Of a stretch of DNA of 64,000 nt, positions 20,324-52,315 are shown in pieces. The DNA comes from Elusimicrobiota bacterium (GTDB taxonomy: Bacteria > Elusimicrobiota > UBA8919), in contig JAQUMH010000003.1 of assembly GCA_028718185.1 (NCBI GenBank), forward strand, positions 8,961 to 72,960. The letters run 5' to 3'. The notes under the pieces are model-generated. The model was not told the origin of the DNA and made no database searches. It worked only from the letters and a program-made list of their open reading frames with translations. The number at the start of each line of letters is the position of its first letter. Position 1 is the stretch's first letter. The position numbers were made by a program, and so were the translations under genes.

Positions 20324-20388
20324 ACGGGATAGTTCTGAATTCTGAATCCTGTTTGCTGAATACTGAATTCTGTTACCCGGACAATTTT

Positions 20389-28580: not shown

Positions 28581-28682
28581 TGGTAGTTTCATGACACATC
28601 ACACATCACACATTACACAATTTTAAGGAAAGTTTTTATGAAAAACGTAATAGACGAAATTAAGAAGAACAAGGGGGTTAAT

Positions 28683-32700: not shown

Positions 32701-35700
32701 ATACAATAACACCGTCAGCCTCACCGGTTGGCTTTACGAAATATTCAAGTAAAGACGGGTATTTATCTTTACCCGGCACGTCAGGTTCTGAATATGTAGA
32801 TAGTTTAATCTGTGATATAGATAATGATGGCTTAAATGATTTTGTAATAATGAAAAGAGGGGTAGCTCCCGGATTAGTGTGGTACAAGAAAAATGGTAAT
32901 AACTGGGACCAAAAATCTATAGACCCTGATCTTTTAAAACTCGGGTGTTTTAGTCAACCTATAGACATGGACAATGATGGCGATATGGATATAGTAAATA
33001 TGGGAGATTATAATGAGCCCCGTGGATATTGGTGGGAGAACCCGGGTCCTCAAGCAGTAGTCACAACGACCAGATGGACTAAGCACATAATAAAAGACGA
33101 CAGCACAGGATTGTCAGTAACCTGGCATGATGCTTGTTTAGGTGATTTTGACGGTGATGGTGCTTTAGAGTTGGCAGCGTGGGGACGAGTGTATGCGTCT
33201 GGTGTAACAAGATTATATTTATGGGACGTACCCGCAGATGTAAAAACCCGTACTACAATATGGCCAAATCCTGCTACAATATATACAAAATCAAGTGCAC
33301 CCGAATGTGAAGGAATGGCAATTACCGATATAGATTTAGACGGCAAAGTGGATATAGTCGGCGGCGGCGGTTGGTTCAAACATGTAAGCGGAACGACATA
33401 TCAATTTAATTCAATAGAACCACTTGAAAGCGCCGTAAGAGGTAAATGCGCGGTTGGACAAATAATAAAAGGCGGCAGACCCGAAGTAGCTTTTTCAGCC
33501 GGTGATTTCACCGGTTTTGCAGCATGGTATGAATCTACAAATGCTGCCGCAACCACATGGACAAAGCATATAATAGATAGCAATGTAGTGCAGGCACATA
33601 GTCTTAAAATAGGTGATTTAGATACAGATGGCGATAATGATATATTTATAGCAGAAATGAGCCGCGTGGGGACTAATAGCTATCCCGCTGCAAGAATGAC
33701 GGTATACAAGAATGACGGTGCAGCAAGCCCAACATTTACAGCAACCATACTTACAACAGGACAAAACAACCACGAAGATGCGATAGGTGATTTAAATGGT
33801 GATGGCCGTCTTGACATATTACAGAAGAGTTATTCCGACCCTGGTAATGAAGATAATGAAATAGCGGTATGGATACAGACCGGTGGTGGGAAAAGAGGTC
33901 TAACGGATTGGACATATAAAGAGTTAGATGTAACCCGGGCACTTTATGGTGGTTGGTTTGAATGGTTTGGTTTAGCAGCAGTTGATTTAAATAATGACGG
34001 CTACAAAGATTTATTATCAGGAAAGTACAGCTACAAAAACCCTGGTGGTGATATGACCGGGACATGGACAAGAACAACGTTTCCTGTAAATGTAGATGCC
34101 AGTTTGGTTACTGATGTAGATGGCGATGCATATCCTGATGTAATAGGTTTTGGACTTACTGCAGCTTACACTCCTAATCCCGGTGTATACTGGTTAGAAA
34201 AAACAGGTGCAGGAGACACGACAGGCGACTGGACAGCTACAAAGGTAGCAGTCATACCGCCGACTCTACATTCACAATCACAGGGAATGAGGATGGCACA
34301 AATAGTTCCCGGTGGCAGGGAAGAGATAGTATGTACCGGTGATTTGCCTTATTCAGGCGATGGAGCCAGTAGCGGAAAATTGTATTACATCCAGATACCG
34401 TTAGTAAGTCCTCAAAACGGCAATTGGCCTGTTACACAGATAAGCAATAGTGTAAGCAATAGTTCAAACAATCAAGGAATCGCAGTAGGCGATATAGACA
34501 AAGATGGCGATTTAGATATAGCAGGAGTGCTGGGTAATAATAGTACAGTAGTATGGTATGAAAACCCCGGTGTTGCCGGACAAGGGAATTGGACAGTGCA
34601 TACCGTAGGCAACGCGACCCCGATAAATAACGTTACAAGTGCTGATGGACCTGACCGTGTCCAGTTGGCAGATTTGAACGACGATGGACGGCTTGACATA
34701 ATACTGACAGATGAGATATGGGATGGAACAAATCCACTTCGTGCGGAAAGCCGTACATATTGGTTTAATTGTCCTGCTACTCCAAAGACAGTAGCCAACT
34801 GGGGTACCTCAACAACGATAGTAAAGCAACAGTCAACTAACTCACTGGATGTAGCCGATATGGATTTTGATGGCGACATAGATGTAGTAACCGGCGAGCA
34901 TAAAGGTGCAAAAGAGACAGCTATCTGGGAAAACGACGGTAGTGCTACACCAAGTTTTACACAACATATAATATCATCAGGAAAAGAAAGTCATAACTCA
35001 GCATATTTATCTGATTTAGATGGCGATGGCGATTTAGACTTAGTAAGTATTACATGGGACGATTTCTTTTCTACGACCGGCGGTTTGATGTATATCTTGC
35101 GTAATAACAATACCTTTGGCGGTGGCGGTGGCAATCCTGTAGTAGCAATTACAAAACCAACCAATGGTCAGCAATTTGATCAAGGTTCTAATATATTAAT
35201 AGAAGCAACGGCAGTTGATGATGTTTCCGTTGCAAAAGTAGAATTTTATAATGGCACCACAAAACTTGGAGAAGACACCAGTTCGCCGTATAGTTACACA
35301 TGGAATAGTGTTCCATCAGGCGATTTTAACATAAGAGCGGTAGTAACAGACAATATCGGTTTAACAGGCAGTGCCCAGGTTACTATTAGTGTCAAAAACA
35401 CAGGCCAGCCTACTCTTCCTGTCGGTAAATGGGACATGGAAGGCACATCAGGCAGTTCAACAGTGAGTGATACATCCGGTAATAATAATAATGGAACATT
35501 GACCGGTATGGATACCAGTACTTGCTGGATTTCCGGTGAGGTAGGCACCGGTTTAAAATTTGACGGAGTAAACGATTATGTCAGCGTCCCTAATTCAACA
35601 TCGTTAGATATAAATGGTAGTCAGCTAACATTAATAGCCTGGGTTAGGGTGGACGCCATAGACCCCACGGATGTTAACGCACATCAAATATTTATAGCGA

Positions 35701-38700
35701 AACCGGCAGCAGACGGTAATCATACTGCACCGTATTTTGCATATTCCTTGCATGGTGTACGTGCCAGTGCAACGGAATTAACACCAAGGTTATGGTTGGA
35801 TATAGGCGGAACAGGAGTAAGTGTAGCAGCCACCCAGAACATAGGTATTGGTACCTGGTATCATTTGGCTGCTGTATATAATGGCGCTACAATGAAGATA
35901 TATGTAGATGGCGTAGAAAGTAACAGTTCTGCACAAACCGGTAATATAGCGGCACTTGGTACCGCGTTAAGGTTAGGTGCTAATGGCGGAGGAACAGAAA
36001 CTTTCAATGGAGCTATGGATGGAGTTAAGATATATAATATAGCGCTAACCGGCAGTGAGATATTAGCTGATAAGAATTTAACATCACAACCGCCGACAAT
36101 AAGCATAAGCACAATAGCGATAACAAATGGTAGTAATCCGCCTGCGACGGTCCGGATAGACGCGACAGCATCCGACAGTGACGGAACAGTAAGCAAAGTA
36201 GAATTTTTCAATGGTACCACTTTAATTGGAACAGACACCAGTTCTCCATATAGTTATACATGGAACCCTGTGCCTGCCGGGACTTACAGTATAACCGCGA
36301 CAGCGACTGATAATAGCGGAGCGACAGCGATAACAGCAGCGCAAATAGTAATAATAACCAACGGTTCCGCTTCACCGCAGCAGGCATATCCTACAGGTGT
36401 TGCTTGGTTGATAGATTCAGGAACGACAACAATACAGGCAGAAGATTACGATATGGTAACAAGCGGTTCTGCCTCCGGTGAGACATATTTTGATACAACA
36501 GTCGGCAATAGTGGTAATGAATACAGAACAGATGATGTAGATGTCCGGGCATGTATTGATACAGGTGCCGGATATCAGGTAGGCTGGACAAAACCTGGCG
36601 AATGGTTGGAATACAGTGTAAATGTTAATCAAGGTGGTGAATACAAAATAATACTAAGGGGTGCCAATGGGGATAAAAACGATGGCGGTCTTATGCATCT
36701 TGAATTTGGTACACATAATTCAGCACCATATAGGACAACACCATCAGTAAGCATACCGCCAACAGGCAGTTACGATACATGGGCTGATGTAGAAATTACA
36801 TCCAATGTTGTGCTTACCGCAGGTAACCAGATAATGAAGTTAGTTATGGAGAATAGTACAGCAATTGGCAATGGTGATTTTAATTATATTTCCTTAATAA
36901 AAATAGGTGCAGATACACCTAATGTAGTTTCAATACCGACAATAACCCCTGGAGCAGGGACATATTCAGGTTCTGTTACTGTAACAATTGATTGTGCAAC
37001 CAATGGAGCAACAAAAAGATATACAACGGATGGAACAGACCCGACATCATCGTCAACACTATATTCCGCACCTTTTACATTAACTGCAAGTGCAACAGTA
37101 AAAGCCCGTGCGTTCAAAGATACTATGACCGATAGTTCAGTAAATAGCGTGGCATATATAGTAACAAGCGTTTCACCGCAGCAGTCATATGGAAACATTC
37201 CGTCAGGTACTCCATGGCATATAGGAATAGGAACAACAACAATAGAAGTAGAAAATTATGATGAGGCAACTACTGGTCTGTCTGATGGTGAGACATATTA
37301 TGATACAACCCCCGGTAATCAAGGTGGAGCATACAGAACAAGTGAAGCAGTGGATATAGAGGCAGTCGTTGGAGCCAGTAATGGTTACGATATCGGATAT
37401 GTAGAACCTGGTGAGTGGTTAGAATACAGTATAAACGTAAATGAGAGTGGCAACTACAAAATAATAGTAAGCGCAGGCATATTAGGCACAGCAAATCCAT
37501 TCCACCTTGAATTTGGTCCACACGGTGCAACAAGTCTTGTAACACCATCAGTAACCGTACCTAATACCGGTGGATGGACGACTTTTACAGATGTAACAGT
37601 TGCAGATTCTGTAACGCTTGCTGCAGGCAACCAGATAATGAAGTTAGTTATGGAAAGCGGTAGTGTATCTAATAATGGTAATTTTGATTGCATCAAAATA
37701 GTAAGACTAACTGCGGATACAACCCCGCCGGTAGTAAGTGCTGTAACACCGGCAAACATATCCGGCAGTGGAACAGTGATAACATGGACGACAAATGAGC
37801 TTGCGAACAGTAAGGTAGAGTATGGTTTAACAACAAGTTATGGCAGTGCAACTCCGGTAACTGATGCTAATGGAGTATACTCACACAGTGTTACTCTAAC
37901 TGGTCTTACTGAGAGCACAGGCTATCATTACAGGATGGTGTCCGTAGATATGAACGGCAATACAACAACAAGCAGTGATTACAGTTTTACAACAATTCTT
38001 AATGACCCTAATCCGCCGGTGATAAGCAATGTATCAGCCGGAGTATCAATCAACACGGCAGTAATAACCTGGAATACCGATGAAAATTCCGACACACAGG
38101 TAGCGTATGGAACTACAACGGCGTTGGGCACCACAACTACGTTAGATGCGACACCAACCAGATTACACAGTGTCTCCATTAACGGGTTACAGAAAGGAAA
38201 GATTTATTATTACAGGGTCTATAGCCGAGACTCATCTAATAATCTTGCAACATCATCGCAGTATAGTTTTAAGACATATAACCTTAAGCACAAGATATAT
38301 ACCTATTACTACGATGACGGAACAACAACAACAAAGGTAGGAGCATCAGCAGCTGCGAGTTTGAAATTCAAGGTTCAGGTATATAATGTAGATGAGAACA
38401 GTATAGCAACTGACTATACCGGAACTTTAACTCTTACAACGAAAAACAGCAAGGGTACAGAACTGGATACAACAGATTCGACATTAGTCACAACAGATGC
38501 AGGTGAGAAGGAAGTCGCTATCCCGTTCCGTAGTGATATAAACACAGTAGAATTAAGTGGTGACACGACAGCGCCGGTAGTAATAAGCTTCAATGATATG
38601 TATATAGCAAAGTTAGTAGGATATCAAGGTGGAACAATACGTGGCGCCAACGGGTTAAAGATATTAATACCTACTGGAGTCTTGTCAGCAAACAAGTATC

Positions 38701-39326
38701 TTGCTTCAATAAAGACAAGTGCATCACCGGAAGTAAAGAACACAATGAAATATGTTAACACAGTTAATCCGATATGTTATGATTTTGGCGAATTAACATT
38801 TAACAATAATGCTCCGGTATTGGAGAACCAGATATTCACAAGAGCAGTAAACATAACAATACCATACACAACGGCAGATATAGGGATATTAAACGAAGAT
38901 GGACTTAGAATCTACTACTGGACAGGGACAGAGTGGGAATTGGTAACAGGAGTTCAGGCAGTAGACAAATCAAACAACACAATAACCGCAACCGTCAAAC
39001 ATTTCTCAACATATCGCGTATTGGGTAGCTATGTATCTTCAGATATGAGTAATGTTAAAGTTTACCCTAACCCATATAATCCCGCAACAGCGGTATTGGG
39101 TAAATTAAAGTTGATAAATCTGCCGATAAATAGTATAATAAAATTGTATAGCGTAACAGGTGAGCTCGTCCGTGAACTCAAAGAGACAGATTTTGGTAAC
39201 CTTGGTTGGCTCGAGTGGGATGGCAAGAATGATAATGGTGACAAAGTAGGTAAAGGAGTGTATATATACCAGATACAAGACGCTGCCGGTAACAAGAAGA
39301 CAGGGAAAATAGGACTGATAAAGTAA
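29730..39326 (+). CDS. Giant (3198 aa) secreted surface protein. Contains an N-terminal unassigned domain, Ig-like domains, 4 CHB_HEX_C-like domains, an unassigned ~380-aa module, a long FG-GAP/VCBS region, LamG/concanavalin-like domain, 2 CBM6-like modules, 2 Fn3, a stalk and a FlgD-Ig/T9SS type-A-like CTD
   Basis: GGAGG RBS and a signal peptide. There are many DxDxDGxxD loops (DIDNDGLNDF, DMDNDGDMDI, DLDTDGDNDI, DLNGDGRLDI and others). 'LKFDGVNDYVSVPNS...WYHLAAVYNGATMKIYVDG' is Laminin_G_3-like. The CBM6/CHB_HEX/Fn3 block and the last ~355 aa are collinear with 3..6377. Confidence 0.93.
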   Translation: MGRIIRCCMMFAVVMIGLSVVSQSAIGPGDIFKETYVWVSPPGSNCSNLWYRVTDPNATYTPIAGLCNDPTDFPNNAQYFSGVDLVGATRAELVVEMWGGHIGTSGKQIKVNNNTWIPIPENTDISSPECYLNFRYPAVAIPLNQLVSGTNRIDVTAGPQICGSFGWGQFAHYGLKLRIYYDASKTHPTGSITSPTASSTINDNPTISATVNTYSGGINRVDFIGYYDDFDEDGNGIYSQWHYRYVLRNGAFLGHIGTAISSPYSKTWDTSWVPDQAASSVKFMAVIVGNDGMCYATPEVAGITLARTTTSVKMYKPSNVPQGFSVTSGASPSSKFCDVVIPSNASTVTGARMSVVTWNGAEGGLTQSVTLAGTEIATSFPNAVDHEYGYSNITVSNSLITAGTKEFRVTAYHPSNTSWTHGPEIIWPGPVLFVQYNTGGIQSVADPAINPNGGTYSSAQTVSITCATGGAIIKYTTNGSDPSSTNGNVYSGPITLSSDTTLKAIATKSGSLDSNVVTANFTITAATTGDPIYYVPVNVAVGSYARYDKPVEVAVNFTQYLTALGVGGSLNDQSLRVRETDSTGTTVINDNVVFQFDEDSAYNASNNAIGTVTFIMSGTTNASATRYFRIFFDVDPTITKVNFTKQVTLTDNVDDEGQSSYKIETVNATYYYHKQGGGFSSMVDTQNNDWLGYHATGGSAGNYRGIPNMVYPASYFHPGFVNSSSSILNQGPIKIKYKTDSIDGLWSCTWEIFPKYARMTVTKKNSAYWFLYEGTPGGNLDVTGTQDYFYRSNDTSPQLCGSYPSSNILNGDIPAPEWVYFADGTINRSIYLINHQDDSSNDSYYQMENNMTVFGFGRTGVNSSLNPVVPAYYTIGFADSRDLTTTKNTIESSWRDLTETIGTPGSSSGPVKVATPQFSLPAGSYSGTQLVIITCGTSGATIKYTTNGSDPSTSGTSGTSPQVATISVSGTLRVIAVKSGSEDSYENTAVYTITPSASPVGFTKYSSKDGYLSLPGTSGSEYVDSLICDIDNDGLNDFVIMKRGVAPGLVWYKKNGNNWDQKSIDPDLLKLGCFSQPIDMDNDGDMDIVNMGDYNEPRGYWWENPGPQAVVTTTRWTKHIIKDDSTGLSVTWHDACLGDFDGDGALELAAWGRVYASGVTRLYLWDVPADVKTRTTIWPNPATIYTKSSAPECEGMAITDIDLDGKVDIVGGGGWFKHVSGTTYQFNSIEPLESAVRGKCAVGQIIKGGRPEVAFSAGDFTGFAAWYESTNAAATTWTKHIIDSNVVQAHSLKIGDLDTDGDNDIFIAEMSRVGTNSYPAARMTVYKNDGAASPTFTATILTTGQNNHEDAIGDLNGDGRLDILQKSYSDPGNEDNEIAVWIQTGGGKRGLTDWTYKELDVTRALYGGWFEWFGLAAVDLNNDGYKDLLSGKYSYKNPGGDMTGTWTRTTFPVNVDASLVTDVDGDAYPDVIGFGLTAAYTPNPGVYWLEKTGAGDTTGDWTATKVAVIPPTLHSQSQGMRMAQIVPGGREEIVCTGDLPYSGDGASSGKLYYIQIPLVSPQNGNWPVTQISNSVSNSSNNQGIAVGDIDKDGDLDIAGVLGNNSTVVWYENPGVAGQGNWTVHTVGNATPINNVTSADGPDRVQLADLNDDGRLDIILTDEIWDGTNPLRAESRTYWFNCPATPKTVANWGTSTTIVKQQSTNSLDVADMDFDGDIDVVTGEHKGAKETAIWENDGSATPSFTQHIISSGKESHNSAYLSDLDGDGDLDLVSITWDDFFSTTGGLMYILRNNNTFGGGGGNPVVAITKPTNGQQFDQGSNILIEATAVDDVSVAKVEFYNGTTKLGEDTSSPYSYTWNSVPSGDFNIRAVVTDNIGLTGSAQVTISVKNTGQPTLPVGKWDMEGTSGSSTVSDTSGNNNNGTLTGMDTSTCWISGEVGTGLKFDGVNDYVSVPNSTSLDINGSQLTLIAWVRVDAIDPTDVNAHQIFIAKPAADGNHTAPYFAYSLHGVRASATELTPRLWLDIGGTGVSVAATQNIGIGTWYHLAAVYNGATMKIYVDGVESNSSAQTGNIAALGTALRLGANGGGTETFNGAMDGVKIYNIALTGSEILADKNLTSQPPTISISTIAITNGSNPPATVRIDATASDSDGTVSKVEFFNGTTLIGTDTSSPYSYTWNPVPAGTYSITATATDNSGATAITAAQIVIITNGSASPQQAYPTGVAWLIDSGTTTIQAEDYDMVTSGSASGETYFDTTVGNSGNEYRTDDVDVRACIDTGAGYQVGWTKPGEWLEYSVNVNQGGEYKIILRGANGDKNDGGLMHLEFGTHNSAPYRTTPSVSIPPTGSYDTWADVEITSNVVLTAGNQIMKLVMENSTAIGNGDFNYISLIKIGADTPNVVSIPTITPGAGTYSGSVTVTIDCATNGATKRYTTDGTDPTSSSTLYSAPFTLTASATVKARAFKDTMTDSSVNSVAYIVTSVSPQQSYGNIPSGTPWHIGIGTTTIEVENYDEATTGLSDGETYYDTTPGNQGGAYRTSEAVDIEAVVGASNGYDIGYVEPGEWLEYSINVNESGNYKIIVSAGILGTANPFHLEFGPHGATSLVTPSVTVPNTGGWTTFTDVTVADSVTLAAGNQIMKLVMESGSVSNNGNFDCIKIVRLTADTTPPVVSAVTPANISGSGTVITWTTNELANSKVEYGLTTSYGSATPVTDANGVYSHSVTLTGLTESTGYHYRMVSVDMNGNTTTSSDYSFTTILNDPNPPVISNVSAGVSINTAVITWNTDENSDTQVAYGTTTALGTTTTLDATPTRLHSVSINGLQKGKIYYYRVYSRDSSNNLATSSQYSFKTYNLKHKIYTYYYDDGTTTTKVGASAAASLKFKVQVYNVDENSIATDYTGTLTLTTKNSKGTELDTTDSTLVTTDAGEKEVAIPFRSDINTVELSGDTTAPVVISFNDMYIAKLVGYQGGTIRGANGLKILIPTGVLSANKYLASIKTSASPEVKNTMKYVNTVNPICYDFGELTFNNNAPVLENQIFTRAVNITIPYTTADIGILNEDGLRIYYWTGTEWELVTGVQAVDKSNNTITATVKHFSTYRVLGSYVSSDMSNVKVYPNPYNPATAVLGKLKLINLPINSIIKLYSVTGELVRELKETDFGNLGWLEWDGKNDNGDKVGKGVYIYQIQDAAGNKKTGKIGLIK

Positions 39327-40858: not shown

Positions 40859-40887
40859 TTGACAAAACGTGAAAAATACTTTATAAA
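40859..40887 (+). promoter_or_regulatory. Sigma70-type promoter driving the riboswitch-led operon
   Basis: TTGACA (40859-40864), an exactly 17-nt spacer, then TATAAA (40882-40887). The aptamer begins ~10 nt downstream. Confidence 0.6.
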
Positions 40888-40896
40888 TATAGTGTA

Positions 40897-40977
40897 AGCG
40901 ATAAAGGCAAATGCCGATTAAAATCGGCAGACGCAAAGCCATAATCCCGCGTCGGGCGGGATGCCGGGTTACCGAAA
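40897..40977 (+). promoter_or_regulatory. c-di-GMP-I (GEMM-I) riboswitch aptamer
   Basis: The sequence is AAGGCAAA-[TGCCGAT TAAA ATCGGCA]-GACGCAAAGCC-ATAA-[TCCCGC GTCG GCGGGA]-TGCCGGGTTACCGAAA. The GGCAAA, GACGCAAAGCC and GGGUUACCGA blocks and the two hairpins match the GEMM-I consensus as in Vc2. Confidence 0.85.
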
Positions 40978-41056
40978 TTAGATACAATTTTTAAACAGAT
41001 ATTACTGCCGTGCATTAGATGGCAGTGATAAGTTGTCTGTTTAGGTTATAACTAAT

Positions 41057-41090
41057 CCGAGTTTCGGTATCCCCGTTAGCTCGGTTTTTT
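41057..41090 (+). terminator. Candidate intrinsic terminator/expression platform of the riboswitch
   Basis: CCGAG (41057-41061) ... CTCGG (41080-41084) is followed by TTTTTT (41085-41090). The loop segment CGGTATCCCCG can alternatively pair with the aptamer 3' strand CGGGTTACCG. The stem is short, so this is moderate at best. Confidence 0.45.
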
Positions 41091-41122
41091 GTTGTAAAGG
41101 TAATTAAGCAATAGAGGCAGCT

Positions 41123-42787
41123 ATGAAAAAAATCAATTACCAGATATTAAATACAGTCCAATGTCCGAGGTCCAATGTCCTGGGTCAACGGCTTATATTT
41201 ATATTTTTTGTTTTAGTATTGACCTTGGACCTCGGACTTCGGACCTCGGACAGTCTCTACGCTGCCTCTTCCGGCGGTCAGGTAGGTCAGTTCCTTTCCT
41301 GGGGTGCCGGTGCAAGGGCGCTTGCTATGGGTAAAGCGTTTTTAGCGATTTCAGATGATGCAACTGCTACATATTGGAACCCTGCAGGGTTAACTCAAAT
41401 TGAGCGTAAGGAATTTACCGGACTTTACGCTAAGTTGTGGTATGACACGACTTATAGTTTTATTTCGTATGTTCATCCGACAACAAAATCAGGAGTCTTC
41501 GGTGTTTCACTCGTATCCCTTACATCTTCTAAGTTTGAAAAAGTTTCAATTGAAAGAAATGCTCAAAATGATGTTGTTGATTTTAAAGTTTTAGGAACAT
41601 TTGATGACACGCAGACGGCAATAACCGGTTCATTTGCCAAAGACCTCTCCAAAAAACTTGCGTTTGGTGCTAATGCAAAGTATGTTTCTCATGTAATTGA
41701 TGTTTACACGGTTGCGTTTATAACATCTGACGTAGCTATTATGATGAAAGATGTTTATCCGAAACTAAAACTTGCAATAAATATACAGAATATGATATCG
41801 CTAAAGTTAGGTGATACTGATGATGATTTCCCGATTGTTTTGAAATTAGGTGCTGCTTACAGGGCGTTAAAAGATAAATTAATAGTTGCGCTTGATGTTG
41901 AAAAGGGTATGAAATCTAACATAAATTATCATATTGGAACCGAATATTGGGCAATGGATTATATCGCTGCAAGATTCGGATTTGATGTCGGTGATACCGG
42001 AATAAGAGAAACAACAGCAGGTATGGGCGGAAGATATAAAGATTATTCTCTTGATTTAGCAATGGCGTTTCATGAATTAGGGGCTTCTACAAGAGTCTCT
42101 GCAAGCTGGAAATTTGGTAAATCTTCCAGGACCGGCAAATTTGAAGAAATGGCAAAATATTTCAAAGAAGGAATGGAAGCATATAAAGTCGGAGAATATC
42201 TTGTTTCTATGGATCGTCTTTCAAAAGCGTATAGTATTGACCCGACAAATGAAGACCTTTCAAGAGCGATTCCGAGAATCCAGGTTGTTTCAACTTGGAT
42301 AAATGCTGAAAAAGGAACTTCCGTAGAAGCAGAAGCAACCAGGACAGGTATTGCTTATTATATTGAAAATGATATAAATAACGCGATTATGGCAATGAGA
42401 CATGCATATTCTTTACAGCCACAGAATGAAAATTTAAGACGTTTATTAAACGAAGTTGAAAAAGAAGCAGGGCAGACACTTACGCCGATTTCAGGTATTA
42501 AATCCACATCAGCTCCGGCACTCAGTTTAATTGAACAAAAACAGGAAAAAGCAAGAGAATATTTCTCAAAGAAACAATATGATGCTGCTATCAATGAATG
42601 TCAGGAAATCCTTATTATTGACTCAAAGAATTTATTAGCATTAAAGAGAATGGGTTCCTGTTATTACCAGATGGGTCTTAAAGATAAAGCGATTGCAACC
42701 TGGAAAAAAGTACTTGAAATTGATCCTACTGATAAAGATGTTCTGGATATTTTAAGAATGTTCGGAGGAGAAGGAGAACAAAAATGA
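41123..42787 (+). CDS. PorV-like outer-membrane barrel fused to C-terminal TPR repeats
   Basis: 'GQFLSWGAGARALAMGKAFLAISDDATATYWNPAGLT' matches the PorV-type N-terminal signature, as in 28683 and 51044. The C-terminal ~200 aa hold TPR-like repeats (e.g. 'YDAAINECQEILIIDSKNLLALKRMGSCYYQMGLKDKAIATWKKVLEIDP'). The stop overlaps the next start in ATGA. Confidence 0.8.
   Translation: MKKINYQILNTVQCPRSNVLGQRLIFIFFVLVLTLDLGLRTSDSLYAASSGGQVGQFLSWGAGARALAMGKAFLAISDDATATYWNPAGLTQIERKEFTGLYAKLWYDTTYSFISYVHPTTKSGVFGVSLVSLTSSKFEKVSIERNAQNDVVDFKVLGTFDDTQTAITGSFAKDLSKKLAFGANAKYVSHVIDVYTVAFITSDVAIMMKDVYPKLKLAINIQNMISLKLGDTDDDFPIVLKLGAAYRALKDKLIVALDVEKGMKSNINYHIGTEYWAMDYIAARFGFDVGDTGIRETTAGMGGRYKDYSLDLAMAFHELGASTRVSASWKFGKSSRTGKFEEMAKYFKEGMEAYKVGEYLVSMDRLSKAYSIDPTNEDLSRAIPRIQVVSTWINAEKGTSVEAEATRTGIAYYIENDINNAIMAMRHAYSLQPQNENLRRLLNEVEKEAGQTLTPISGIKSTSAPALSLIEQKQEKAREYFSKKQYDAAINECQEILIIDSKNLLALKRMGSCYYQMGLKDKAIATWKKVLEIDPTDKDVLDILRMFGGEGEQK
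41154..41253 (+). repeat. Heptamer-periodic palindrome (GTCCAAT/GTCCGAG units) embedded in the 5' end of CDS 41123..42787
   Basis: The left arm CAGTCCAATGTCCGAGGTCCAATGTCCTGGGTCAA (41154-41188) pairs with the right arm TTGACCTTGGACCTCGGACTTCGGACCTCGGACAG (41219-41253). A T-rich 30-nt loop encodes the hydrophobic core of the predicted signal peptide. Confidence 0.75.
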
Positions 42788-44742
42788 GAAAAGTAGTTAA
42801 GCTATTAAGTAATCAGGCGGTAGAGTGGGTTTTATTTGTTGTTTTACTACTATACCATTTTACCGCTATAATTTATGCTGAAACCGAATATTCCTCACTT
42901 CTGCAGGAAAAAATGAAGATTGAAAAAGAATATGAGAAAAGGATTATAGATATTGTAGAAAAAATTGTCGGTTCCGGAAAATCAGTTGTTTTTGTTTCAG
43001 CAGAATTACAGATTGTTAAAGCAACATCTCAGAAAAATCAGAGAGAGGGAAATGCCAGTCAAACGAATCCTTTTTCCGGGTTAAAATCCAAGCCGCAGGT
43101 TCTTCCGGGATTTGATGAAGACAGCGCAGCACCTGTTCAGCAAGCTTCTCCCGGTTCAGAAAAATCAGCAGGGTTAAGTCAGAGTATTGAACAAACTGTT
43201 ATTCCGACCATACTTAAGTTATTAAAAGTTACAATTCTTATTGACAAAGGTGTTCAGGAAGCCAAAAAGACTATTATTAAGGAAGCAATTAAGCAATCGA
43301 TTAGTTCTGACATAGGTGCGGATAAGCTTGTACTTGAAATAAAAGAAGCACCATTTTCGTCAGAAGCTTTTTGGGCACCTTTTATTAAACCAACTGTTTT
43401 AGTCCCGCTTATTTTAGGAGTAATATTTCTTATTGTTTTAATGGGACCGCTTCAGAGTGTACTTTTATCGTTTGCCTCAGCAATTAGAGAAGGTAAAAGT
43501 GGCGGTGATTTCACCGTTTTTTCAAAGACTGAATCAAAAGGTGAAACAAGTGGAACTGCGGGTGGCGGTGCAGGCGGTGGTGTTGCAGGCGGCGCGGGTG
43601 GAGTTGCAGATGCAGGTGGTGTTGGCGGTGAATCAATAACAGAATTAATGGAAAAGGAGGATAAGAAAGTGAAAAAGAAAGAAAAACCATTTGCATTTAT
43701 TACGAAAGATAACCTAAAAAATCTTATTTATCTTATACAGGAAGAGCCTCCGGAAGTGATTGCGTTGATTGTTACCTATCTTGAACCTGAACTGTCTGCG
43801 GATGTAGTTGCATCGCTTTCTTCTGATTTACAGCTTCAGACGGCAATATGTATTGCAAATGTGAAACTCAGTTCTGAGGAAGATGTATATAAAATCCATG
43901 AAAAGATTAAGGGCAAAATTGATTTTCTTGTCGGTGGTATAGATGTCTTCATAAAGATTATTGAACAAGTTGATAACAAGGTCAGGAAAGAAATGTCGGA
44001 TACCCTTGAAAAACAGTCACCAAGACTTGCAAGAAAAGTTCGTGAAAGTATTTTCATGTTTGAAGATTTGGCAAAACTGCCCGACCAGACAGTTCAGTTT
44101 ATTTTAAGGGAAATAAAAACTGATCAGATAGCAATTGCCTTAAAAGGTACCGGTGTTGAAGCGGTTATGCAAAAAGTTCTGGCAAATATGTCCGAAGGTG
44201 GTAGAGTTTTACTGAAAGAAGAAATGGATTTTGGTAAACCATACAGCCAGCAGCAAATCGGTGAGGTCCAGCGTGAAATAGAAAAAACAGTTAAAAAAAT
44301 GGAAAAAGATAAGAAAATTGTTTTAAGACAAGATGATGAATCAGAGAAACAAGGAGTTGAGGTTGAAGGTCGTCTTCAGAAACTGAATATTGGTGAAGAA
44401 TATAGAACAGTACAGCCACAGCAATCACAACAATCACAGCAGTCCCAACAATCTCAAAAAACTACCGAGTCGCCTCAAAGAGCAATTGAATACTACAATG
44501 CCGGTATTACTTCATATTCTTCCGGTAAAATCGACGATGCAATACATTATTTCCAGCGTTCGGTTGAATATAATCAGAATTTTTGGCAGGCTTGGCAATA
44601 TCTCGGGAGCTGTCTCTACTCAAAGGGAAGAATTGACGACGCTATAAAAGCATACGAGAAATCATTATCAGCAAACCCGTCAAACACGCAACTCCGTGAC
44701 TGGCTCCAGGGAGAAAAACAGAAAAGAGCAGCAGCAAAATAG
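42784..44742 (+). CDS. Two-TM membrane protein with a FliF/SctJ-like periplasmic segment, Gly-rich linker, FliG-like middle and C-terminal domains, Q/S linker and TPR repeats
   Basis: TM1 is at aa ~14-32 and TM2 at aa ~200-222. Aa ~300-510 read 'PPEVIALIVTYLEPELSADVVASLSSDLQ...VGGIDVFIKIIEQVDNKVRKEMSDTLEKQSPRLARKVRESIFMFEDLAKLPDQTVQFILREIKTDQIAIALKGTGVEAVMQKVLANMSEGGRVLLKEEMD'. This tracks FliG (cf. MFVFEDI/L, LALALKGA, NMSKRAA..L+DEL in characterised FliGs). The periplasmic 'IVGSGKSVVFVSAEL' and 'VTILIDKG' recall FliF/SctJ ring-building motifs. Confidence 0.75.
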   Translation: MRKVVKLLSNQAVEWVLFVVLLLYHFTAIIYAETEYSSLLQEKMKIEKEYEKRIIDIVEKIVGSGKSVVFVSAELQIVKATSQKNQREGNASQTNPFSGLKSKPQVLPGFDEDSAAPVQQASPGSEKSAGLSQSIEQTVIPTILKLLKVTILIDKGVQEAKKTIIKEAIKQSISSDIGADKLVLEIKEAPFSSEAFWAPFIKPTVLVPLILGVIFLIVLMGPLQSVLLSFASAIREGKSGGDFTVFSKTESKGETSGTAGGGAGGGVAGGAGGVADAGGVGGESITELMEKEDKKVKKKEKPFAFITKDNLKNLIYLIQEEPPEVIALIVTYLEPELSADVVASLSSDLQLQTAICIANVKLSSEEDVYKIHEKIKGKIDFLVGGIDVFIKIIEQVDNKVRKEMSDTLEKQSPRLARKVRESIFMFEDLAKLPDQTVQFILREIKTDQIAIALKGTGVEAVMQKVLANMSEGGRVLLKEEMDFGKPYSQQQIGEVQREIEKTVKKMEKDKKIVLRQDDESEKQGVEVEGRLQKLNIGEEYRTVQPQQSQQSQQSQQSQKTTESPQRAIEYYNAGITSYSSGKIDDAIHYFQRSVEYNQNFWQAWQYLGSCLYSKGRIDDAIKAYEKSLSANPSNTQLRDWLQGEKQKRAAAK

Positions 44743-44875: not shown

Positions 44876-47800
44876 ATGAGCGAAGAAAAAAAAGATGTTT
44901 TCGGAGGAGGGTTCCCGCCATTTCCACAGGAAAACAATTCAATGCCGTCTGCACTGGATTTACCACCATCATCTCAGGGTATGCCGCCTATGATTCCCAA
45001 TGCACCTTTCTCATCTCAGAATGTTTCTCCTTCGTCTAGCTCGTCGTCCGTTGATTATTCGAAAAAATTTCAGGAGATGGAACAGACATATATGAATATG
45101 GCGAAAATGCTTGAAGAAGTGAAAGAAAAACATGAAAAAGAAAAACATCTCTGGGAAGAAAAAATAAATTCCCTTCAAAAGGATTCACAGGAAGCATTAG
45201 ATGAATTTGCCGTTCGCCAGTTAAAAGAAGAAGAAGAAAGAACAAAAAAAGAGTCAGAAATCCGTGAAGAGAAATTGAAACTTGAAATGTCATTAAAAGA
45301 ACTTGGAAATAAATTAGAGGAGGCACGGGAAAAAACATTTCTTCAGGCACTTAAGTCAAAAGAAGATGAAGCAACTTCAGTGCGACTCGAAGCTGCTATG
45401 AAAGACGTGCAGTTAAAAAGCGTTCAGGAAAATGCATCACGCGAAATAGAAGCAGTTAAAATAAATTTAGGGGCAGCTTTATCGGAAAGGCTTGTAGCCT
45501 TACAAAAACAATATGAAAATAAACTTACCGATATTTATATAAAATCGTCCCAGAAGGAAAAGGAACTAATAGGCAAACTTGATGCTTTACAAACAGAAAA
45601 AGAGGCACTTTTAAAAAAAGCAGAACACGAGAAAAATCATCTTAATAGCGACTTTAATGATAAGATTTTAAAGAAACAAAATGAAATAAATCTAATCACA
45701 TCAAAATTAGATAATGTAAAAGATAATTACAATAAAATTCTTGGTTCACTCGAGAATGACCTGTCTTCTGCTAAAGCCAATATACTTATGGAAGTTGCAA
45801 AAACTAAATCAGAATACGAAGAAAAACTAAACCAGCTGAAAACAGAATATTCTGTGGTAGAGGGTCAAAAAATAACACTCAATGCACAATTAGAAGCAGA
45901 AAGGAAGATTTCAGCTGAAAAATTAAAAAATAAGGAAGACGAAATCGGCTCGCTGTATAAACAATTTACTGAAAGAGAAAACTTGTTAAAGGCTGATTTT
46001 GAAAAGCAAATTTCACAAAATATTGAAGATAAGAAACGGCTTGAAGGGGAATTCCGCCAGACAGTAGAAAAAACAAGTGAACGGGATGACGAATGGCGTT
46101 CAAAAATGGATGGCTTAAAAGTCGAATATGAAAATAAACTTAAAGATAAAGATTTACAATTACAAAAAGTTGAAATGGGTTTCAATAATAAACTTGCAGA
46201 ACTGAATAATATCCACCAGCAAAACGTTGACCAGTTAAAAGAAAATATTAACCAGCAAAACCAGCTGTTATTACAGGAAAGGACGAGATTAGAAAAACTA
46301 ATTTCAGAAAAAGACAAGGAAATGCTGGAAGTCAAAACCTCCCTTCAGGAGGAACTAAGAAAACAAAAAGATTTTTACGAAGAAGTGCTTTTAGAAAGGG
46401 AAGAAAAGATTTCCAGTATTAATGCAGATTTTGAAAAAAAAGAGGCAGCCATTCGTGCTGATTCTGACAAACGACTTGCTGATGCGTTGAATGAAAATCT
46501 GAAACTGGAAATGAAATTTAGAAATGAAATAGAAGTTTTAACCAACGAATATACTAAAAGACTTTCGGTATCACTTGATGAGAAAAAAAATATTGAGCAG
46601 GAATACCAATCTCGGCTAAGTTTTATTGAAAAAGAGCACTTGAGGGAAATGGATTTATTGAAGGAAAGGCAAATAACCGAAATTGAAAAACAGAAACAGG
46701 AATTCCAGAAAAAATTAGAAGCCGAAGGTGCTTCTAAAAATGAACTTGAGAAAAACCACCAGATTACTATAGAAAAAAAGGTGTCAGAATTTGAAAAAAG
46801 TTTAAGAGTCAGAGATGATGAGTGGCGATTAAAATATGAAGGGACAAAAAATGAATATGACGGCAAAATCAGGCAAATTGAATCAGAAAAAGCGTTACTG
46901 CAGCAGGGGATGTCGAAACAACTTGAAGAAATGAATAACAACTGGCTCAAAAAAATTCATTCTGAAAAATCATATATGGAAGAAAAAGTTGCAGCTCTTT
47001 CTTCCGAACTTAGTTCAAAGGAAAAGCGGTGGTCTGAAGAGAATGAAAAATACAAATTGCTAATGTCAGCTAAGGAAAACGATATTTTGTCGGTTAAAAG
47101 TCAGTACGAAAACCGTATTTCTGAAATGACAAAGACGGAGAATAATCTTAAGACGATGATTGAGAAAGTATCGGCAGATTTGGTTAATGAACGTGCAAGA
47201 TTTTCAAAAGAGATTTCTACCAAAACAAAAGAATATGAAGAAAAAATGCAAGACTATATCAAAAGTAAAGAAAACGAAATTTCAACCATTAAGATGGAAA
47301 CAGAAAATATCCGCAATAAATGGTTTGAAGAAAAACAACAATGGGTAGATGAACTGACAAAAAAGACAACATTTCCAGCTGAAGAATTAAAAACAATTAA
47401 TCTTAAAAAAGCAGAACTGGAAGCGATGGAACTTAAATTAAAACTCAGTCAAAGCGTATTAGATGAGCGTATTAATATGGAAAAACTTAAATATGATAAT
47501 ATGATTGTGATAAAAGATGACCAGTTGGAATCTCTTAAGAAGCAGTTGCAAAATGCAGAAATAGATATGGAAGGGAAAATAAAATCAGCATACCAGAAGA
47601 ATATGTTAGATAAAAAAATATTAGAAGAAAAAGAAATAAGCAGTTTGAACGACCAGTTGGAATCTACAAAGAGGCGGTTACAAAATGCAGAAGACAATGT
47701 AGATGAGAAAGTAAAATCTGCATATCAGAAGGACTCGTTAGATAAAAAAATGTTGGAAGAAAAAGAAAGAGAAATACGCAATTTAAATGGCCAGTTGGAA

Positions 47801-48367
47801 TCTCTTAAAACTCAATTAAAAAATACAGAAAAGGAGATAGAAGAAAAAACAGAAATGATGTTTCAAAATGCTTCAATAGATAAGTCAATGCTAAAAGAAA
47901 AAGATACGGAACTGAATAAACTAAAAGATAGCATTCAAAATATCAAACTGGTTAAACAACAATTTGAAAAAGAACTTGCCGGAATACAGGCAGAAAATAA
48001 GAGAAAAGAGGAAGAAATTTTAATGCTTCAAAAAAATGTGGAAAACAAACTGATTTCACAGAAAGAAAAAATGGAATCGGAATTTTCTGAGAAAATGACC
48101 GTTATCGTTGAAAAATACGAGCAGGAAAAGAAAGTAATTGAGGAATCATTCCTGAATGCAAATGCACAAAATTTATCAGAAATAGAAATATTGAAAAGTG
48201 AAATTGAAACTTTTAAGAATGCACAGGCATTCCAAAAAGCAATTCTTGATTCCAGAGATACTATCATGCATCCCGAATCACCTGTTGATGTTGAAACCGG
48301 GCAATCTGATAAAAAGAAAGATTCTGTATTGGGGAAAATACTGAATTGGCTTAATTCCCCTATATAA
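44876..48367 (+). CDS. 1163-aa coiled-coil protein with a Pro/Ser-rich N-terminus and no signal peptide or TM segment
   Basis: GGGAGG RBS. The composition is K/E/L/Q-rich with heptad character almost throughout. Three ~43-aa tandem repeats (QLESLKKQLQNAE...KSAYQK..LDKK.LEEKE) are encoded at ~47520-47900. Confidence 0.85.
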   Translation: MSEEKKDVFGGGFPPFPQENNSMPSALDLPPSSQGMPPMIPNAPFSSQNVSPSSSSSSVDYSKKFQEMEQTYMNMAKMLEEVKEKHEKEKHLWEEKINSLQKDSQEALDEFAVRQLKEEEERTKKESEIREEKLKLEMSLKELGNKLEEAREKTFLQALKSKEDEATSVRLEAAMKDVQLKSVQENASREIEAVKINLGAALSERLVALQKQYENKLTDIYIKSSQKEKELIGKLDALQTEKEALLKKAEHEKNHLNSDFNDKILKKQNEINLITSKLDNVKDNYNKILGSLENDLSSAKANILMEVAKTKSEYEEKLNQLKTEYSVVEGQKITLNAQLEAERKISAEKLKNKEDEIGSLYKQFTERENLLKADFEKQISQNIEDKKRLEGEFRQTVEKTSERDDEWRSKMDGLKVEYENKLKDKDLQLQKVEMGFNNKLAELNNIHQQNVDQLKENINQQNQLLLQERTRLEKLISEKDKEMLEVKTSLQEELRKQKDFYEEVLLEREEKISSINADFEKKEAAIRADSDKRLADALNENLKLEMKFRNEIEVLTNEYTKRLSVSLDEKKNIEQEYQSRLSFIEKEHLREMDLLKERQITEIEKQKQEFQKKLEAEGASKNELEKNHQITIEKKVSEFEKSLRVRDDEWRLKYEGTKNEYDGKIRQIESEKALLQQGMSKQLEEMNNNWLKKIHSEKSYMEEKVAALSSELSSKEKRWSEENEKYKLLMSAKENDILSVKSQYENRISEMTKTENNLKTMIEKVSADLVNERARFSKEISTKTKEYEEKMQDYIKSKENEISTIKMETENIRNKWFEEKQQWVDELTKKTTFPAEELKTINLKKAELEAMELKLKLSQSVLDERINMEKLKYDNMIVIKDDQLESLKKQLQNAEIDMEGKIKSAYQKNMLDKKILEEKEISSLNDQLESTKRRLQNAEDNVDEKVKSAYQKDSLDKKMLEEKEREIRNLNGQLESLKTQLKNTEKEIEEKTEMMFQNASIDKSMLKEKDTELNKLKDSIQNIKLVKQQFEKELAGIQAENKRKEEEILMLQKNVENKLISQKEKMESEFSEKMTVIVEKYEQEKKVIEESFLNANAQNLSEIEILKSEIETFKNAQAFQKAILDSRDTIMHPESPVDVETGQSDKKKDSVLGKILNWLNSPI

Positions 48368-51043: not shown

Positions 51044-52315
51044 ATGAATAAAAATTATTTTTACAAATTATTATTTATCTTTATCTTTTTTACCGGCTCG
51101 TTTGTATACCCGGCATTTGAAAATATATCTTCGGGTGCCCGTCCTTATGGTATGGGTAATGCATTTACCGGACTTGCTGATGATATCCAGGCAGTTTTTT
51201 ATAATCCGGCCGGGCTTACACAGATAAGATATAAAGAACTTATTACCTCATTTGGCAGACCTTTTTTAGGATTGGATGACAAAAGCAACATCTCGGACGG
51301 TTTTATCGGTTATTTGTATCCTATAAGAGGGCGCGAATCAATAGCAGTTTCAGTTACTGATTTAAGGCTTTCATCAATTTACAGCGAAAACGTTGCTACA
51401 TTAAGTTACGCTAAAGATATTAAAAAAAATGTTTCTTTCGGATTTAATTTAAAAGCATTAAGAATAAAATATGGTAGTGATTCTTACACTGAAATTGACC
51501 CTGTTTTTAATAGAGATTCACGGACATCTTTTTCGGGTGATGTGGGTTTGTTTATGAAATTTACAAAAAAGTTTTCAGCCGGATTTTCTGCATTTAATCT
51601 TAATGAACCGAATATTGGTATTGCTGAAGTTTTACCTCTGCCGTTAAAAATGCGGTTAGGCATAAGTTACCGGCCTGCTTTTGCAACAATATGTTTTGAT
51701 GTAGAAAAACAAAAAGACAATTATACATATTTCCTTGGGAGCGAAAAATTAATTTTCACCAATGATTTTTTTATAAGAGAAGGAGCTAGTTACAGCAAGA
51801 ATTTAATAAATATTTCTTTGGGTTTTTCATATTTACCCGACCCATTAAAAATCGATTATGCTTTTCAAATGCCCATTGTGGGGATAAAAAGTATTTTAGG
51901 CAGCCACCGCATTTCTATAACTTTTGAATTTGGTAAAGAGATCCACGATCCCTATACTAGTGATTTGGAAACTGAAATTGATAAATTAACCAAAGAAAAT
52001 GAGAAATTACAGAAGAATTTAAATACAACAACAGAGCAGCTTTCAAATACATCGTCAGATATGGAAAAGACAAAGGCACAGTTAGAGGAGATTCAAAAAC
52101 AAAAAGAGCAGCTTGAGGTTGAAAAACGCAGGTCCGAATACCGTCCTCCTGTAAAAAAAGTCACGTATCATACTGTTGAAAAAGGTGATACATTATCGTC
52201 TATTTCTCAGAAATATTACGGTACCTCTGACAAATGGCAGGATATTTATAATGCCAATAAAAATAAAATAGAAAGAGGAACACCCATAGTAGGAAGCCAA
52301 TTGATAATACCATAA
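51044..52315 (+). CDS. PorV-like outer-membrane barrel fused to a coiled-coil segment and a C-terminal LysM domain
   Basis: 'SSGARPYGMGNAFTGLADDIQAVFYNPAGLTQ' is the PorV-type signature. A coiled coil follows ('ETEIDKLTKENEKLQKNL...QLEEIQKQKEQLEVEK'). 'YHTVEKGDTLSSISQKYYGTSDKWQDIYNANKNKI...GSQLIIP' is a LysM motif. Confidence 0.8.
   Translation: MNKNYFYKLLFIFIFFTGSFVYPAFENISSGARPYGMGNAFTGLADDIQAVFYNPAGLTQIRYKELITSFGRPFLGLDDKSNISDGFIGYLYPIRGRESIAVSVTDLRLSSIYSENVATLSYAKDIKKNVSFGFNLKALRIKYGSDSYTEIDPVFNRDSRTSFSGDVGLFMKFTKKFSAGFSAFNLNEPNIGIAEVLPLPLKMRLGISYRPAFATICFDVEKQKDNYTYFLGSEKLIFTNDFFIREGASYSKNLINISLGFSYLPDPLKIDYAFQMPIVGIKSILGSHRISITFEFGKEIHDPYTSDLETEIDKLTKENEKLQKNLNTTTEQLSNTSSDMEKTKAQLEEIQKQKEQLEVEKRRSEYRPPVKKVTYHTVEKGDTLSSISQKYYGTSDKWQDIYNANKNKIERGTPIVGSQLIIP

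Follow-up and report, generated by a model that had tools for sequence, protein, structure and literature searches.

We analysed a stretch of 64,000 nucleotides from an uncultivated Elusimicrobiota bacterium (contig JAQUMH010000003.1, positions 8,961 to 72,960), called the window below, whose positions 40,859 to 41,125 hold a promoter, an aptamer of the GEMM-I class (c-di-GMP-I, the class-I aptamers for cyclic di-GMP, c-di-GMP), a long hairpin, a predicted intrinsic terminator and the translation start of an operon. The first two genes of this operon encode a PorV-like outer-membrane protein and a protein in which parts of the flagellar proteins FliF and FliG appear to be joined. An earlier note, made from the letters of the window, had proposed here a c-di-GMP-I riboswitch controlling a PorV-like/FliG-like operon. 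The elements of the leader, all on the plus strand, are as follows.

40859-40887, plus strand: sigma-70-type promoter, read from the sequence, with -35 box TTGACA (40859-64), 17-nt spacer and -10 box TATAAA (40882-87)
40896-40976, plus strand: c-di-GMP-I (GEMM-I) aptamer, match to the full RF01051 model
40912-40929, plus strand: P1a hairpin of 7 bp (40912-18/40923-29, UGCCGAU-UAAA-AUCGGCA), from the Rfam match and folding
40937-40970, plus strand: P2 (P1b) helix, with outer stem 40937-40/40967-70 and inner hairpin 40944-50/40956-62, from the Rfam match and folding
40965-40979, plus strand: putative switching strand, formed by the aptamer 3' strand (with C92, one part of P2 and the P1 side) and also the 5' arm of the antiterminator, from the minimum free energy (MFE) fold
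40990-41045, plus strand: long spacer hairpin, -24.3 kcal/mol, z -6.05, 0 of 200 shuffles folding as well
41057-41090, plus strand: predicted intrinsic terminator, with stem 41057-63/41078-84, inner stem 41065-67/41073-75 and T6 at 41085-90, from folding
41113-41125, plus strand: ribosome-binding site AGAGG (41113-17) and ATG of gene 1 (41123-25), from the sequence

The aptamer and its leader

When both strands of the whole window were scanned with the 4227 families of Rfam 15, a single match reached the gathering level of its family: RF01051 (c-di-GMP-I), at 40896-40976 on the plus strand, with 44.7 bits against a gathering threshold of 35 and an E-value of 1.7e-5. The match spans positions 1-87 of the 87-position model. 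A search with RF01051 was the check that the earlier note had proposed, and the features on which it had based its claim are present where it put them. The three conserved blocks lie at 40906-40911 (GGCAAA), 40930-40940 (GACGCAAAGCC) and 40966-40975 (GGGTTACCGA), and the core pattern (CGCAAAGC, a gap of 20-50 nt, GGGTTRCCGA) occurs once in the window and in none of 100 shuffles. Both aptamer hairpins, P1a and P2, are recovered by the Rfam match as well as by folding, and GC 40907-08 pairs with GC 40933-34.

The near-consensus promoter that had been noticed just upstream agrees with the consensus at 11 of 12 positions and ends 8 nt before the aptamer match, and transcription would start at about 40894-96. 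The long hairpin, which had been placed at about 40993-41042, extends over 40990-41045, and we infer that it serves as a spacer or timing element. The hairpin followed by U6 is likewise found at 41057-41090: CCGAGTT (41057-63) pairs with AGCTCGG (41078-84) around an inner CGG/CCG stem (-12.8 kcal/mol, z -4.6), giving a G+C-rich stem of 7 + 3 bp directly followed by a U tract, as predicted for an intrinsic terminator.

Compared with Vc2 of Vibrio cholerae, the reference aptamer of the class, the element of the window shares the three blocks GGCAAA, GACGCAAAGCC and GGGUUACCGA, the bases G20, A47 and C92 (Vc2 numbering) and the fold in which two hairpins surround a three-way junction. It differs from Vc2 in its P1a loop, UAAA or UUAAAA, which is not a GNRA tetraloop and has no obvious receptor, in two A-C mismatches at the base of P2, where 40943-44 face 40964-65 in the Rfam register, and in that only a few nucleotides separate the beginning of the aptamer from the presumed start of the transcript. 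A GNRA loop belongs to type 1 members of the class only, and membership is allowed without it; GEMM aptamers that lack the tetraloop and its receptor are said to make up a 'type 2' form. A full-model score, two covarying hairpins at the junction, the three ligand-contact bases and a position in a 5' leader with an expression platform are thus found together, and the element is, judging from its sequence and that of its orthologues, almost certainly a GEMM-I riboswitch. As an RNA it is a further member of a well-known class, and what is unusual lies in its surroundings.

Conservation of the leader among Elusimicrobiota

The orthologous locus was taken from 11 further contigs, designated here by L numbers. 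In 10 Elusimicrobiota loci, whose FliG-like proteins are only 38-70% identical, the orthologous operon has this leader in front of it, and in every locus where the leader is present an aptamer of the GEMM-I clan stands upstream of the first operon gene. The proposal that the operon is under the riboswitch is therefore supported by conserved synteny in 10 loci, beyond mere proximity. RF01051 detects the aptamers of L001 (37.5 bits), L010 (76.1 bits) and L011 (61 bits), and those of L013 (61.9 bits) and L015 (66.7 bits) have RF03167 as their best model. The aptamers of L008 and L009 were found by sequence, that of L014 is present and cut at its 5' end, and those of L002 and L003 fall below the Rfam threshold because of large insertions in P1a and P2.

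The order promoter, aptamer, terminator, ribosome-binding site and ATG is kept in 9 loci. Hairpin terminators with T5 to T8 stand at the equivalent place in 9 loci (the window and 8 others), and five relatives (L001, L002, L003, L008 and L009) have at the equivalent places a perfect TTGACA-17-TATAAT promoter and a long hairpin of other sequence and length. The N-terminus of gene 1, MK..NYQIL, is common to the orthologues.

Since alignments of the aptamers by MAFFT were structurally inconsistent (in P1a of L001 and L009, and in the inner part of P2), only 12 unambiguous pairs were modelled and the sequences were realigned with Infernal. A clade-specific covariance model, R1, built in this way from 5 sequences with the 12 pairs annotated, also finds the element of the window, at 77.9 bits (the window being in the training set), in agreement with the identity proposed for it. 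R1 recovers L001, L009, L002 and L003, on which it was not trained, at 59-41 bits. In the nine-sequence alignment all 108 of 108 pair cells are standard, compared with 81% in column shuffles and 25-56% in slid registers. Changes on both sides affect 19 cells; shuffles give 6.5 +/- 1.7, and 0 of 500 of them reach 19. Among the 9 orthologues, 5 of the 6 pairs of P1a are compensatory and none is unpaired, and the outer four pairs of P2 are standard in 9 of 9. A separate count on helices delimited by hand gave no non-canonical pair among 60 cells, with 9 distinct helices among 10 sequences. The length of P1a lies between 16 and 110 nt and that of P2 between 30 and 111 nt, and each folds as a hairpin in every case; the P1a loops of L010, L011 and L013 are GAAA or GUAA. 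On this comparative evidence, the leader is a real, selected RNA structure rather than a chance match.

Large hairpin insertions are tolerated in these aptamers: the element of L008 occupies 7951-8205 (P1a of 110 nt, P2 of 111 nt), that of L002 7865-7991 and that of L003 5475-5615. GEMM-I aptamers expanded in this manner fall below the Rfam gathering threshold or become invisible, and routine annotation would miss them.

Alternative folds and the predicted switch

In the MFE fold of the leader (40894-41092), 40970-79 pairs with 41060-69 and 40965-68 with 41072-75, enclosing the spacer hairpin; P1a and the inner P2 hairpin are retained. The terminator segment 41060-75 is thus also the 3' arm of an antiterminator. 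This fold has -72.7 kcal/mol, and the arrangement of aptamer, spacer hairpin and terminator, obtained by forcing the aptamer 3' strand to pair upstream, has -69.9 kcal/mol, 2.8 kcal/mol higher. When growing transcripts are folded, the aptamer is best up to 40990 and the antiterminator takes over at 41075. The duplex formed by the switching strand of the window has -14.6 kcal/mol, which 4 of 500 shuffles reach; in 6 of 6 members of its clade, pairing of the aptamer 3' strand to the 5' half of the terminator yields -12 to -22 kcal/mol, reached by 0 to 17 of 500 shuffles. The ribosome-binding site, 23 nt past the U tract, takes part in neither of the alternative folds.

These results bear on two statements of the earlier note. 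It had pointed to the CGGUAUCCCCG/CGGGUUACCG pairing between a 'terminator loop' and the aptamer 3' strand, and had suggested from it that the folds are mutually exclusive. The pairing is real: it is part of the MFE fold of the whole leader and runs 5 bp further, into the 5' stem of the terminator. The name given to the segment does not hold, for it consists of the 5' stem plus the inner stem-loop. The mutual exclusivity is supported by the energies of the two folds and by complementarity above that of shuffles throughout the clade. The polarity of the switch had been left unstated; the architecture predicts an OFF switch.

The following sequence of events would result. The aptamer would be transcribed first and fold, followed by the 56-nt spacer hairpin, and the 5' half of the terminator (41057-75) would then emerge with two possible partners. 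At low c-di-GMP it would pair with the aptamer 3' strand (40965-79), so that the antiterminator forms and transcription continues into the operon. When c-di-GMP is high, the bound ligand would keep the aptamer 3' strand engaged in the C92 contact and in P1 and P2, leaving the 5' half of the terminator to pair with its own 3' half (41073-84), and transcription would stop at U6.

A similar architecture is described for Cd1 of Clostridioides difficile, an OFF switch on flagellar genes, in which aptamer and terminator can coexist, both competing with an antiterminator made of the aptamer 3' strand and terminator sequence (PMC9262584). The leader of the window shares these properties, and, given that its antiterminator would be built from the aptamer 3' strand, ligand binding should favour termination and repress a motility-type operon. 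It differs from Cd1 in the 56-nt spacer hairpin between aptamer and terminator, and in that the genes are not a flagellar operon: they comprise a lone FliF-FliG fusion and PorV/PorP-like outer-membrane proteins. Motility systems are typically switched off at high c-di-GMP, as is predicted here. We consider it probable, from the predicted folds, that the leader is a transcriptional OFF switch.

Ligand specificity

The positions of the window equivalent to the contacts of Vc2 are 40906 for G20, 40935 for A47 and 40972 for C92, the last being placed as the first C of ACCGA by reading of the alignment. We take A47 to be the third of the ligand-contact positions. In Vc2, G20 recognises one guanine of c-di-GMP and C92 the other (PMC6140456). 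All three positions of the window hold the canonical base, which leads to the prediction that its ligand is c-di-GMP; from the sequence, we hold this to be very likely.

Riboswitches for cyclic GMP-AMP (cGAMP) have A in place of G20, the G20A mutant of Vc2 binds both ligands, and several natural A20 aptamers are bispecific (PMC6140456). These GEMM-Ib aptamers, such as Geobacter Gs1761 and that of pilM, have the same fold and core as the element studied here. Among the orthologous leaders, A20 was found in 6 of 10: L001 (position 8037), L002 (7875), L003 (5485), L008 (7961), L009 (8130) and L010 (1253). All five of the closest relatives of the window are in this group, whereas the window itself has G at 40906, as have L011, L013 and L015 at the equivalent position. 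As aligned here, the specificity-determining base is thus variable among orthologous leaders that stand before the same operon, and ligand specificity may differ between lineages. Orthologous leaders that differ at one specificity nucleotide, with the regulated genes unchanged, offer a natural test set for the evolution of ligand specificity.

The GGC variant (c-di-GMP-I-GGC, RF03167) belongs to the same Rfam clan, CL00126, and has a gathering threshold of 59 bits, which L013 and L015 exceed with the scores given above. Its consensus core reads GACGCGAA, with G for A47, against GACGCAAA in RF01051. The window scores best with RF01051 and has A at position 47, as do all its relatives. RF03167 was accordingly rejected as an assignment for L013, L015, L002 and L003, and since position 47 is A, the matches to it most likely reflect competition between related models.

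Signalling proteins are encoded just past the operon, 3-7 kb downstream. A REC-GGDEF protein (55066-55998, plus strand) has the motif GGDNF and an Asp at the position of the Hypr Ser348, and is probably non-catalytic, judging from this motif. The possibility that it is a Hypr (cGAMP-making) GGDEF protein beside the operon was rejected on account of the Asp and of the degenerate motif. A PilZ-TPR protein follows (57816-59702, plus strand), with a DUF1016/YhcG nuclease gene between the two. Proteins of c-di-GMP signalling hence cluster with the riboswitch-controlled genes.

Alternative explanations

Taken together, the statement that the leader holds a class-I c-di-GMP riboswitch that acts as an OFF switch on the operon appears to us likely, and several observations weigh against it. 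The score of the window is only 9.7 bits above the RF01051 gathering threshold, and because of this modest score, the non-GNRA P1a loop and the two A-C mismatches of P2, affinity could be lower than in model riboswitches. The alignment used for covariation was fitted to the structure of the model, which favours that structure. The sole mismatch of the promoter is an A at the end of the -10 box, where T is normally invariant, and for this reason a consensus scan missed the promoter. A simple scan for terminators did not list the hairpin at 41057-41090, because the outer stem encloses 14 nt and the loop rule of the scan is 3-8 nt. The folds are thermodynamic, and co-transcriptional kinetics lie outside the model. 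In L011, L013 and L015, complementarity between aptamer and terminator, narrowly defined, is not above that of shuffles. L010 and L014 have no terminator, their aptamer ending 8-25 nt before the start codon, so that the family does not share a single expression platform. Finally, the public runs that contain the DNA of the window are landfill and peat metagenomes, probably DNA, with no RNA run among them.

The question arises as to whether another explanation would account better for these data. The arrangement of L010 and L014 implies that translational control exists in the family, and the polarity proposed for the window is derived from predicted folds; a c-di-GMP riboswitch with another output, either an ON switch or a control of translation or RNA stability, would fit both, and a hairpin of -44 kcal/mol just inside gene 1 could add a regulatory layer. 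In ON switches such as pilM, however, aptamer and terminator are mutually exclusive (PMC9262584), whereas in the window they do not overlap, as is the case in Cd1 and other OFF switches; moreover, its ribosome-binding site, 23 nt past the U tract, is outside both folds. We regard such an output as improbable. The same grade applies to recognition of 3',3'-cGAMP, or of cGAMP and c-di-GMP both. The A20 of six orthologous leaders, among them all five closest relatives, speaks for it, as this base defines cGAMP and bispecific GEMM-Ib aptamers (PMC6140456); but the window has G20, wild-type G20 aptamers discriminate against cGAMP (PMC6140456), and the nearby REC-GGDEF protein carries Asp in place of the Ser by which Hypr enzymes are marked, and its motif looks degenerate anyway.

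Alternatively, the leader might be a decaying, non-functional relic of a riboswitch, with downstream hairpins that are unrelated repeats or a constitutive attenuator. The modest Rfam score, the absent tetraloop-receptor pair, the two mismatches of P2 and the repeat-like insertions in the leaders of relatives all speak for a relic. Yet nothing is lost from the core blocks or the three ligand contacts, covariation across the 9 orthologues leaves no pair of the helices broken, the mismatched base of P2 is itself conserved in six sequences, and the antiterminator complementarity is kept across the clade; decay is thus a very improbable explanation. As for a chance likeness to GEMM-I, it has the modest bit score and nothing else in its favour, and it has to face the E-value obtained over the whole window, the absence of the core pattern from shuffles and, above all, the presence of the element at the orthologous position in ten loci; this conservation refutes it, and we give it practically no credit.

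The regulated operon

The genes behind the leader, and the two that probably form the distal end of the operon, are all on the plus strand.

41123-42787, plus strand: gene 1, PorV/PorQ-family outer-membrane beta-barrel with C-terminal TPR, 554 amino acids (NF033709)
42784-44742, plus strand: gene 2, predicted FliF(RBM3/collar)-transmembrane helix-Gly-rich linker-FliG(MC)-TPR protein, 652 amino acids (Pfam, AlphaFold, Foldseek)
44876-48367, plus strand: gene 3, coiled-coil-rich protein, 1163 amino acids (sequence)
48486-50849, plus strand: gene 4, fn3/Ig repeats and C-terminal tail of type B (CHU_C) of the type IX secretion system (T9SS) (Pfam)
51044-52315, plus strand: gene 5, PorP/SprF- or PorV-like barrel, coiled coil, LysM (Pfam)
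52494-53453, plus strand: HATPase_c histidine-kinase-like protein (Pfam)
53872-54927, plus strand: TPR/NHL protein (Pfam)

Gene 2 had been described as FliG-like, and this part of the description is confirmed: its product matches FliG_M (PF14841, 43.6 bits against 25, 3.5e-11) and FliG_C (PF01706, 90.8 bits against 23.3, 8.2e-26), as well as the MC domains of Thermotoga maritima FliG (PDB 3ajc and 1lkv) at 1e-34. It has to be refined by what precedes these domains. In an AlphaFold (AF2) model (mean predicted local distance difference test score, pLDDT, of 68, with individual domains at 75-94), the order is N-terminal helix, alpha/beta domain, transmembrane helix, disordered Gly-rich linker, FliG MC and TPR. 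With Foldseek, the model matches FliG 1lkv (3.9e-11), and its alpha/beta domain matches the FliF RBM3/collar 6sd1_A (E 2.4e-4, target TM-score 0.52). Weak YscJ_FliF_C matches are recorded for relatives. A PDB sequence search with the N-terminal 241 amino acids of gene 2 gave no match, and the likeness to FliF appears through fold comparison only. According to these models, gene 2 is a natural FliF-FliG fusion without the N-terminal domain of FliG, an absence explained by the covalent joining of FliF and FliG. With respect to the MS- and C-rings of the flagellum, the protein would thus unite an RBM3/collar-like periplasmic domain of FliF, a transmembrane helix and the MC domains of FliG.

The differences from flagellar FliG are several. 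As a full-length FliG the protein falls short, with 120 bits against 226.7 for TIGR00207 and coverage of profile positions 91-333 only. In the alignment to T. maritima FliG, the FliM-binding motif EHPQ is replaced by EPPE. Of the five charges of the torque helix, whose roles we take to be those of the residues of Escherichia coli FliG, three are kept (the equivalents of K264, D288 and D289), with R281 replaced by G and R297 by S.

The protein of the window is 62-70% identical to proteins of Elusimicrobiota metagenome-assembled genomes (MAGs). The family has about 25 members in a database of 5.8 billion proteins, from Elusimicrobiota and one Firestonebacteria MAG. A look-up of the exact gene 2 product returned no record, and a scan of metagenome contigs with the FliG-like alignment returned one irrelevant TPR match only.

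Gene 1, which had been called PorV-like, deserves the name at the level of the family: it reaches 122.3 bits with NCBIfam NF033709, whose cutoff is 90, and with each of the narrower equivalog models, for PorV, PorQ and PorV2, it scores under the cutoff. It also matches Pfam TPR families and, weakly, UPF0164, FadL and PorV, and shares 42% identity with its counterpart, the first gene of L011 (E 3e-144). For gene 3, neither Pfam nor NCBIfam gave a family; over its N-terminal part of about 350 amino acids, identity with the third gene of L011 is 27% (E 2e-17). Gene 4 matches Pfam CHU_C (29.9 bits against 27) and fn3, with TIGR04131 at 27.6 bits, under the cutoff of 35; gene 5 matches Pfam PorP_SprF (33.3 bits against 22.3) and LysM, with NCBIfam PorV_fam at 63 bits, under the cutoff. 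The histidine-kinase-like and TPR/NHL genes follow the operon in the same order in L001, L002, L003 and L008, and are probable distal genes of the operon on this ground. Compared with the T9SS and gliding set of Bacteroidota (PorV, PorP/SprF, SprB-type cargo), genes 1, 4 and 5 thus resemble PorV/PorQ, type-B-tail cargo and PorP/SprF, respectively. In the window there are no other flagellar genes and no GldKLMN/PorKLMN genes. In L011, L012 and L013, flbD, motA and two motB-like genes come directly after gene 3. Directly upstream, most loci have a gene for a giant repeat protein, of 3198 amino acids in the window, where it has a weak CHU_C tail, and of 6,700-14,454 amino acids in relatives.

Which apparatus could such genes encode? 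From their content, the cluster looks to us like a non-flagellar, envelope-spanning and possibly rotary surface or motility apparatus; a role of the motility type would agree with its being repressed at high c-di-GMP. Our search of the literature for this operon, its riboswitch, or GEMM elements in Elusimicrobia yielded only a remark in a preprint on orphan fliG, motAB and flbD, according to which most free-living, non-flagellated Elusimicrobiota keep these genes in a role called 'enigmatic' (bioRxiv 10.1101/2022.07.08.499144). As a riboswitch the element is nothing out of the ordinary, and it is found by Rfam; it is of value because it points to an orphan fliG cluster wired directly to cyclic-dinucleotide signalling. 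Unusual are the FliF-FliG/PorV-like operon, the G20/A20 difference among orthologous leaders and the two further, divergent GEMM-like leaders described below.

A broader scenario can be formulated, in which non-flagellated Elusimicrobiota possess a previously undescribed envelope machine under second-messenger control. A FliF-FliG rotor, driven by MotAB/FlbD (as encoded in L011 and L013), would be coupled to PorV/PorP-like barrels, cargo with T9SS tails and giant adhesins, flagellar and T9SS parts being combined into a system for gliding or surface rotation. The riboswitch would have flipped between G20 and A20 more than once, sister lineages using c-di-GMP, cGAMP or both, and the leaders at 20058 and 28292 would tie adhesin operons into the regulon. 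With all its parts taken jointly, this scenario is speculative, and we think it rather unlikely to be right in full.

About 30 nt past the ATG of gene 1 lies a very stable inverted repeat (41156-41251, plus strand, -44.1 kcal/mol, z -6.1), in the start of the gene that codes for the signal peptide. This region is variable among orthologues, relative to which the window has small in-frame insertions here. Similar hairpins of GTCCGA/TCGGAC type are found in other leaders (28220-28290 in the window, 5740-5860 in L003). The inverted repeat may be a repeat element or an extra regulatory structure.

Two divergent GEMM-like leaders and the surroundings of the operon

A permissive Rfam scan gave two sub-threshold matches to RF01051 in intergenic leaders, at 20058-20140 (plus strand, 30.4 bits) and at 28292-28374 (plus strand, 25.9 bits).

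20058-20142, plus strand: divergent GEMM-I-like element, leader of the gene of a CBM6/fn3/SdrD_B surface protein of 1074 amino acids (20353-23577)
28292-28376, plus strand: divergent GEMM-I-like element, upstream of a PorV/PorQ-family gene (28638-29630) and of the gene of the giant protein of 3198 amino acids (29730-39326)

R1 scores the two elements at 27.6 and 29.6 bits, respectively (with E-values of roughly 5e-6 and 1e-6 for 279 kb). The leaders are paralogous, with a near-identical aptamer-like core, diverged flanks and a compensatory change of C-G to A-U in P1a. At their junction, GGCUGC stands for GGCAAA and GAGUUCGCAAAACC for GACGCAAAGCC, and the element at 20058 has a GAAA tetraloop and a receptor-like motif, GGCUAAG. 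Distally, both leaders contain the P2 3' strand once more (AGGUUAYCGAAAA; AGGTTAYCGAAAA), at about 20216-28 and 28467-79, and this second copy pairs with the P2 5' strand in the MFE fold of each. This suggests, from predicted folds, that there may be two competing ways of closing the aptamer.

Another match, at 24629-24728 (plus strand) to PYLIS_3, the mttB element for pyrrolysine insertion, came near its threshold (35 bits against a gathering value of 38). It lies in an MttB-family methyltransferase gene (23666-25093) without an in-frame stop, and is for that reason probably coding-sequence homology and not a pyrrolysine signal. The region 72-39326 (plus strand) as a whole encodes mostly very large secreted repeat proteins (FG-GAP, Big_7, CBM6/CBM35, fn3, laminin-G, F5/8 type C), together with three AraC-type regulators and a GH123-like hydrolase; it is a surface-adhesin and glycan-binding island that adjoins the riboswitch-controlled operon.

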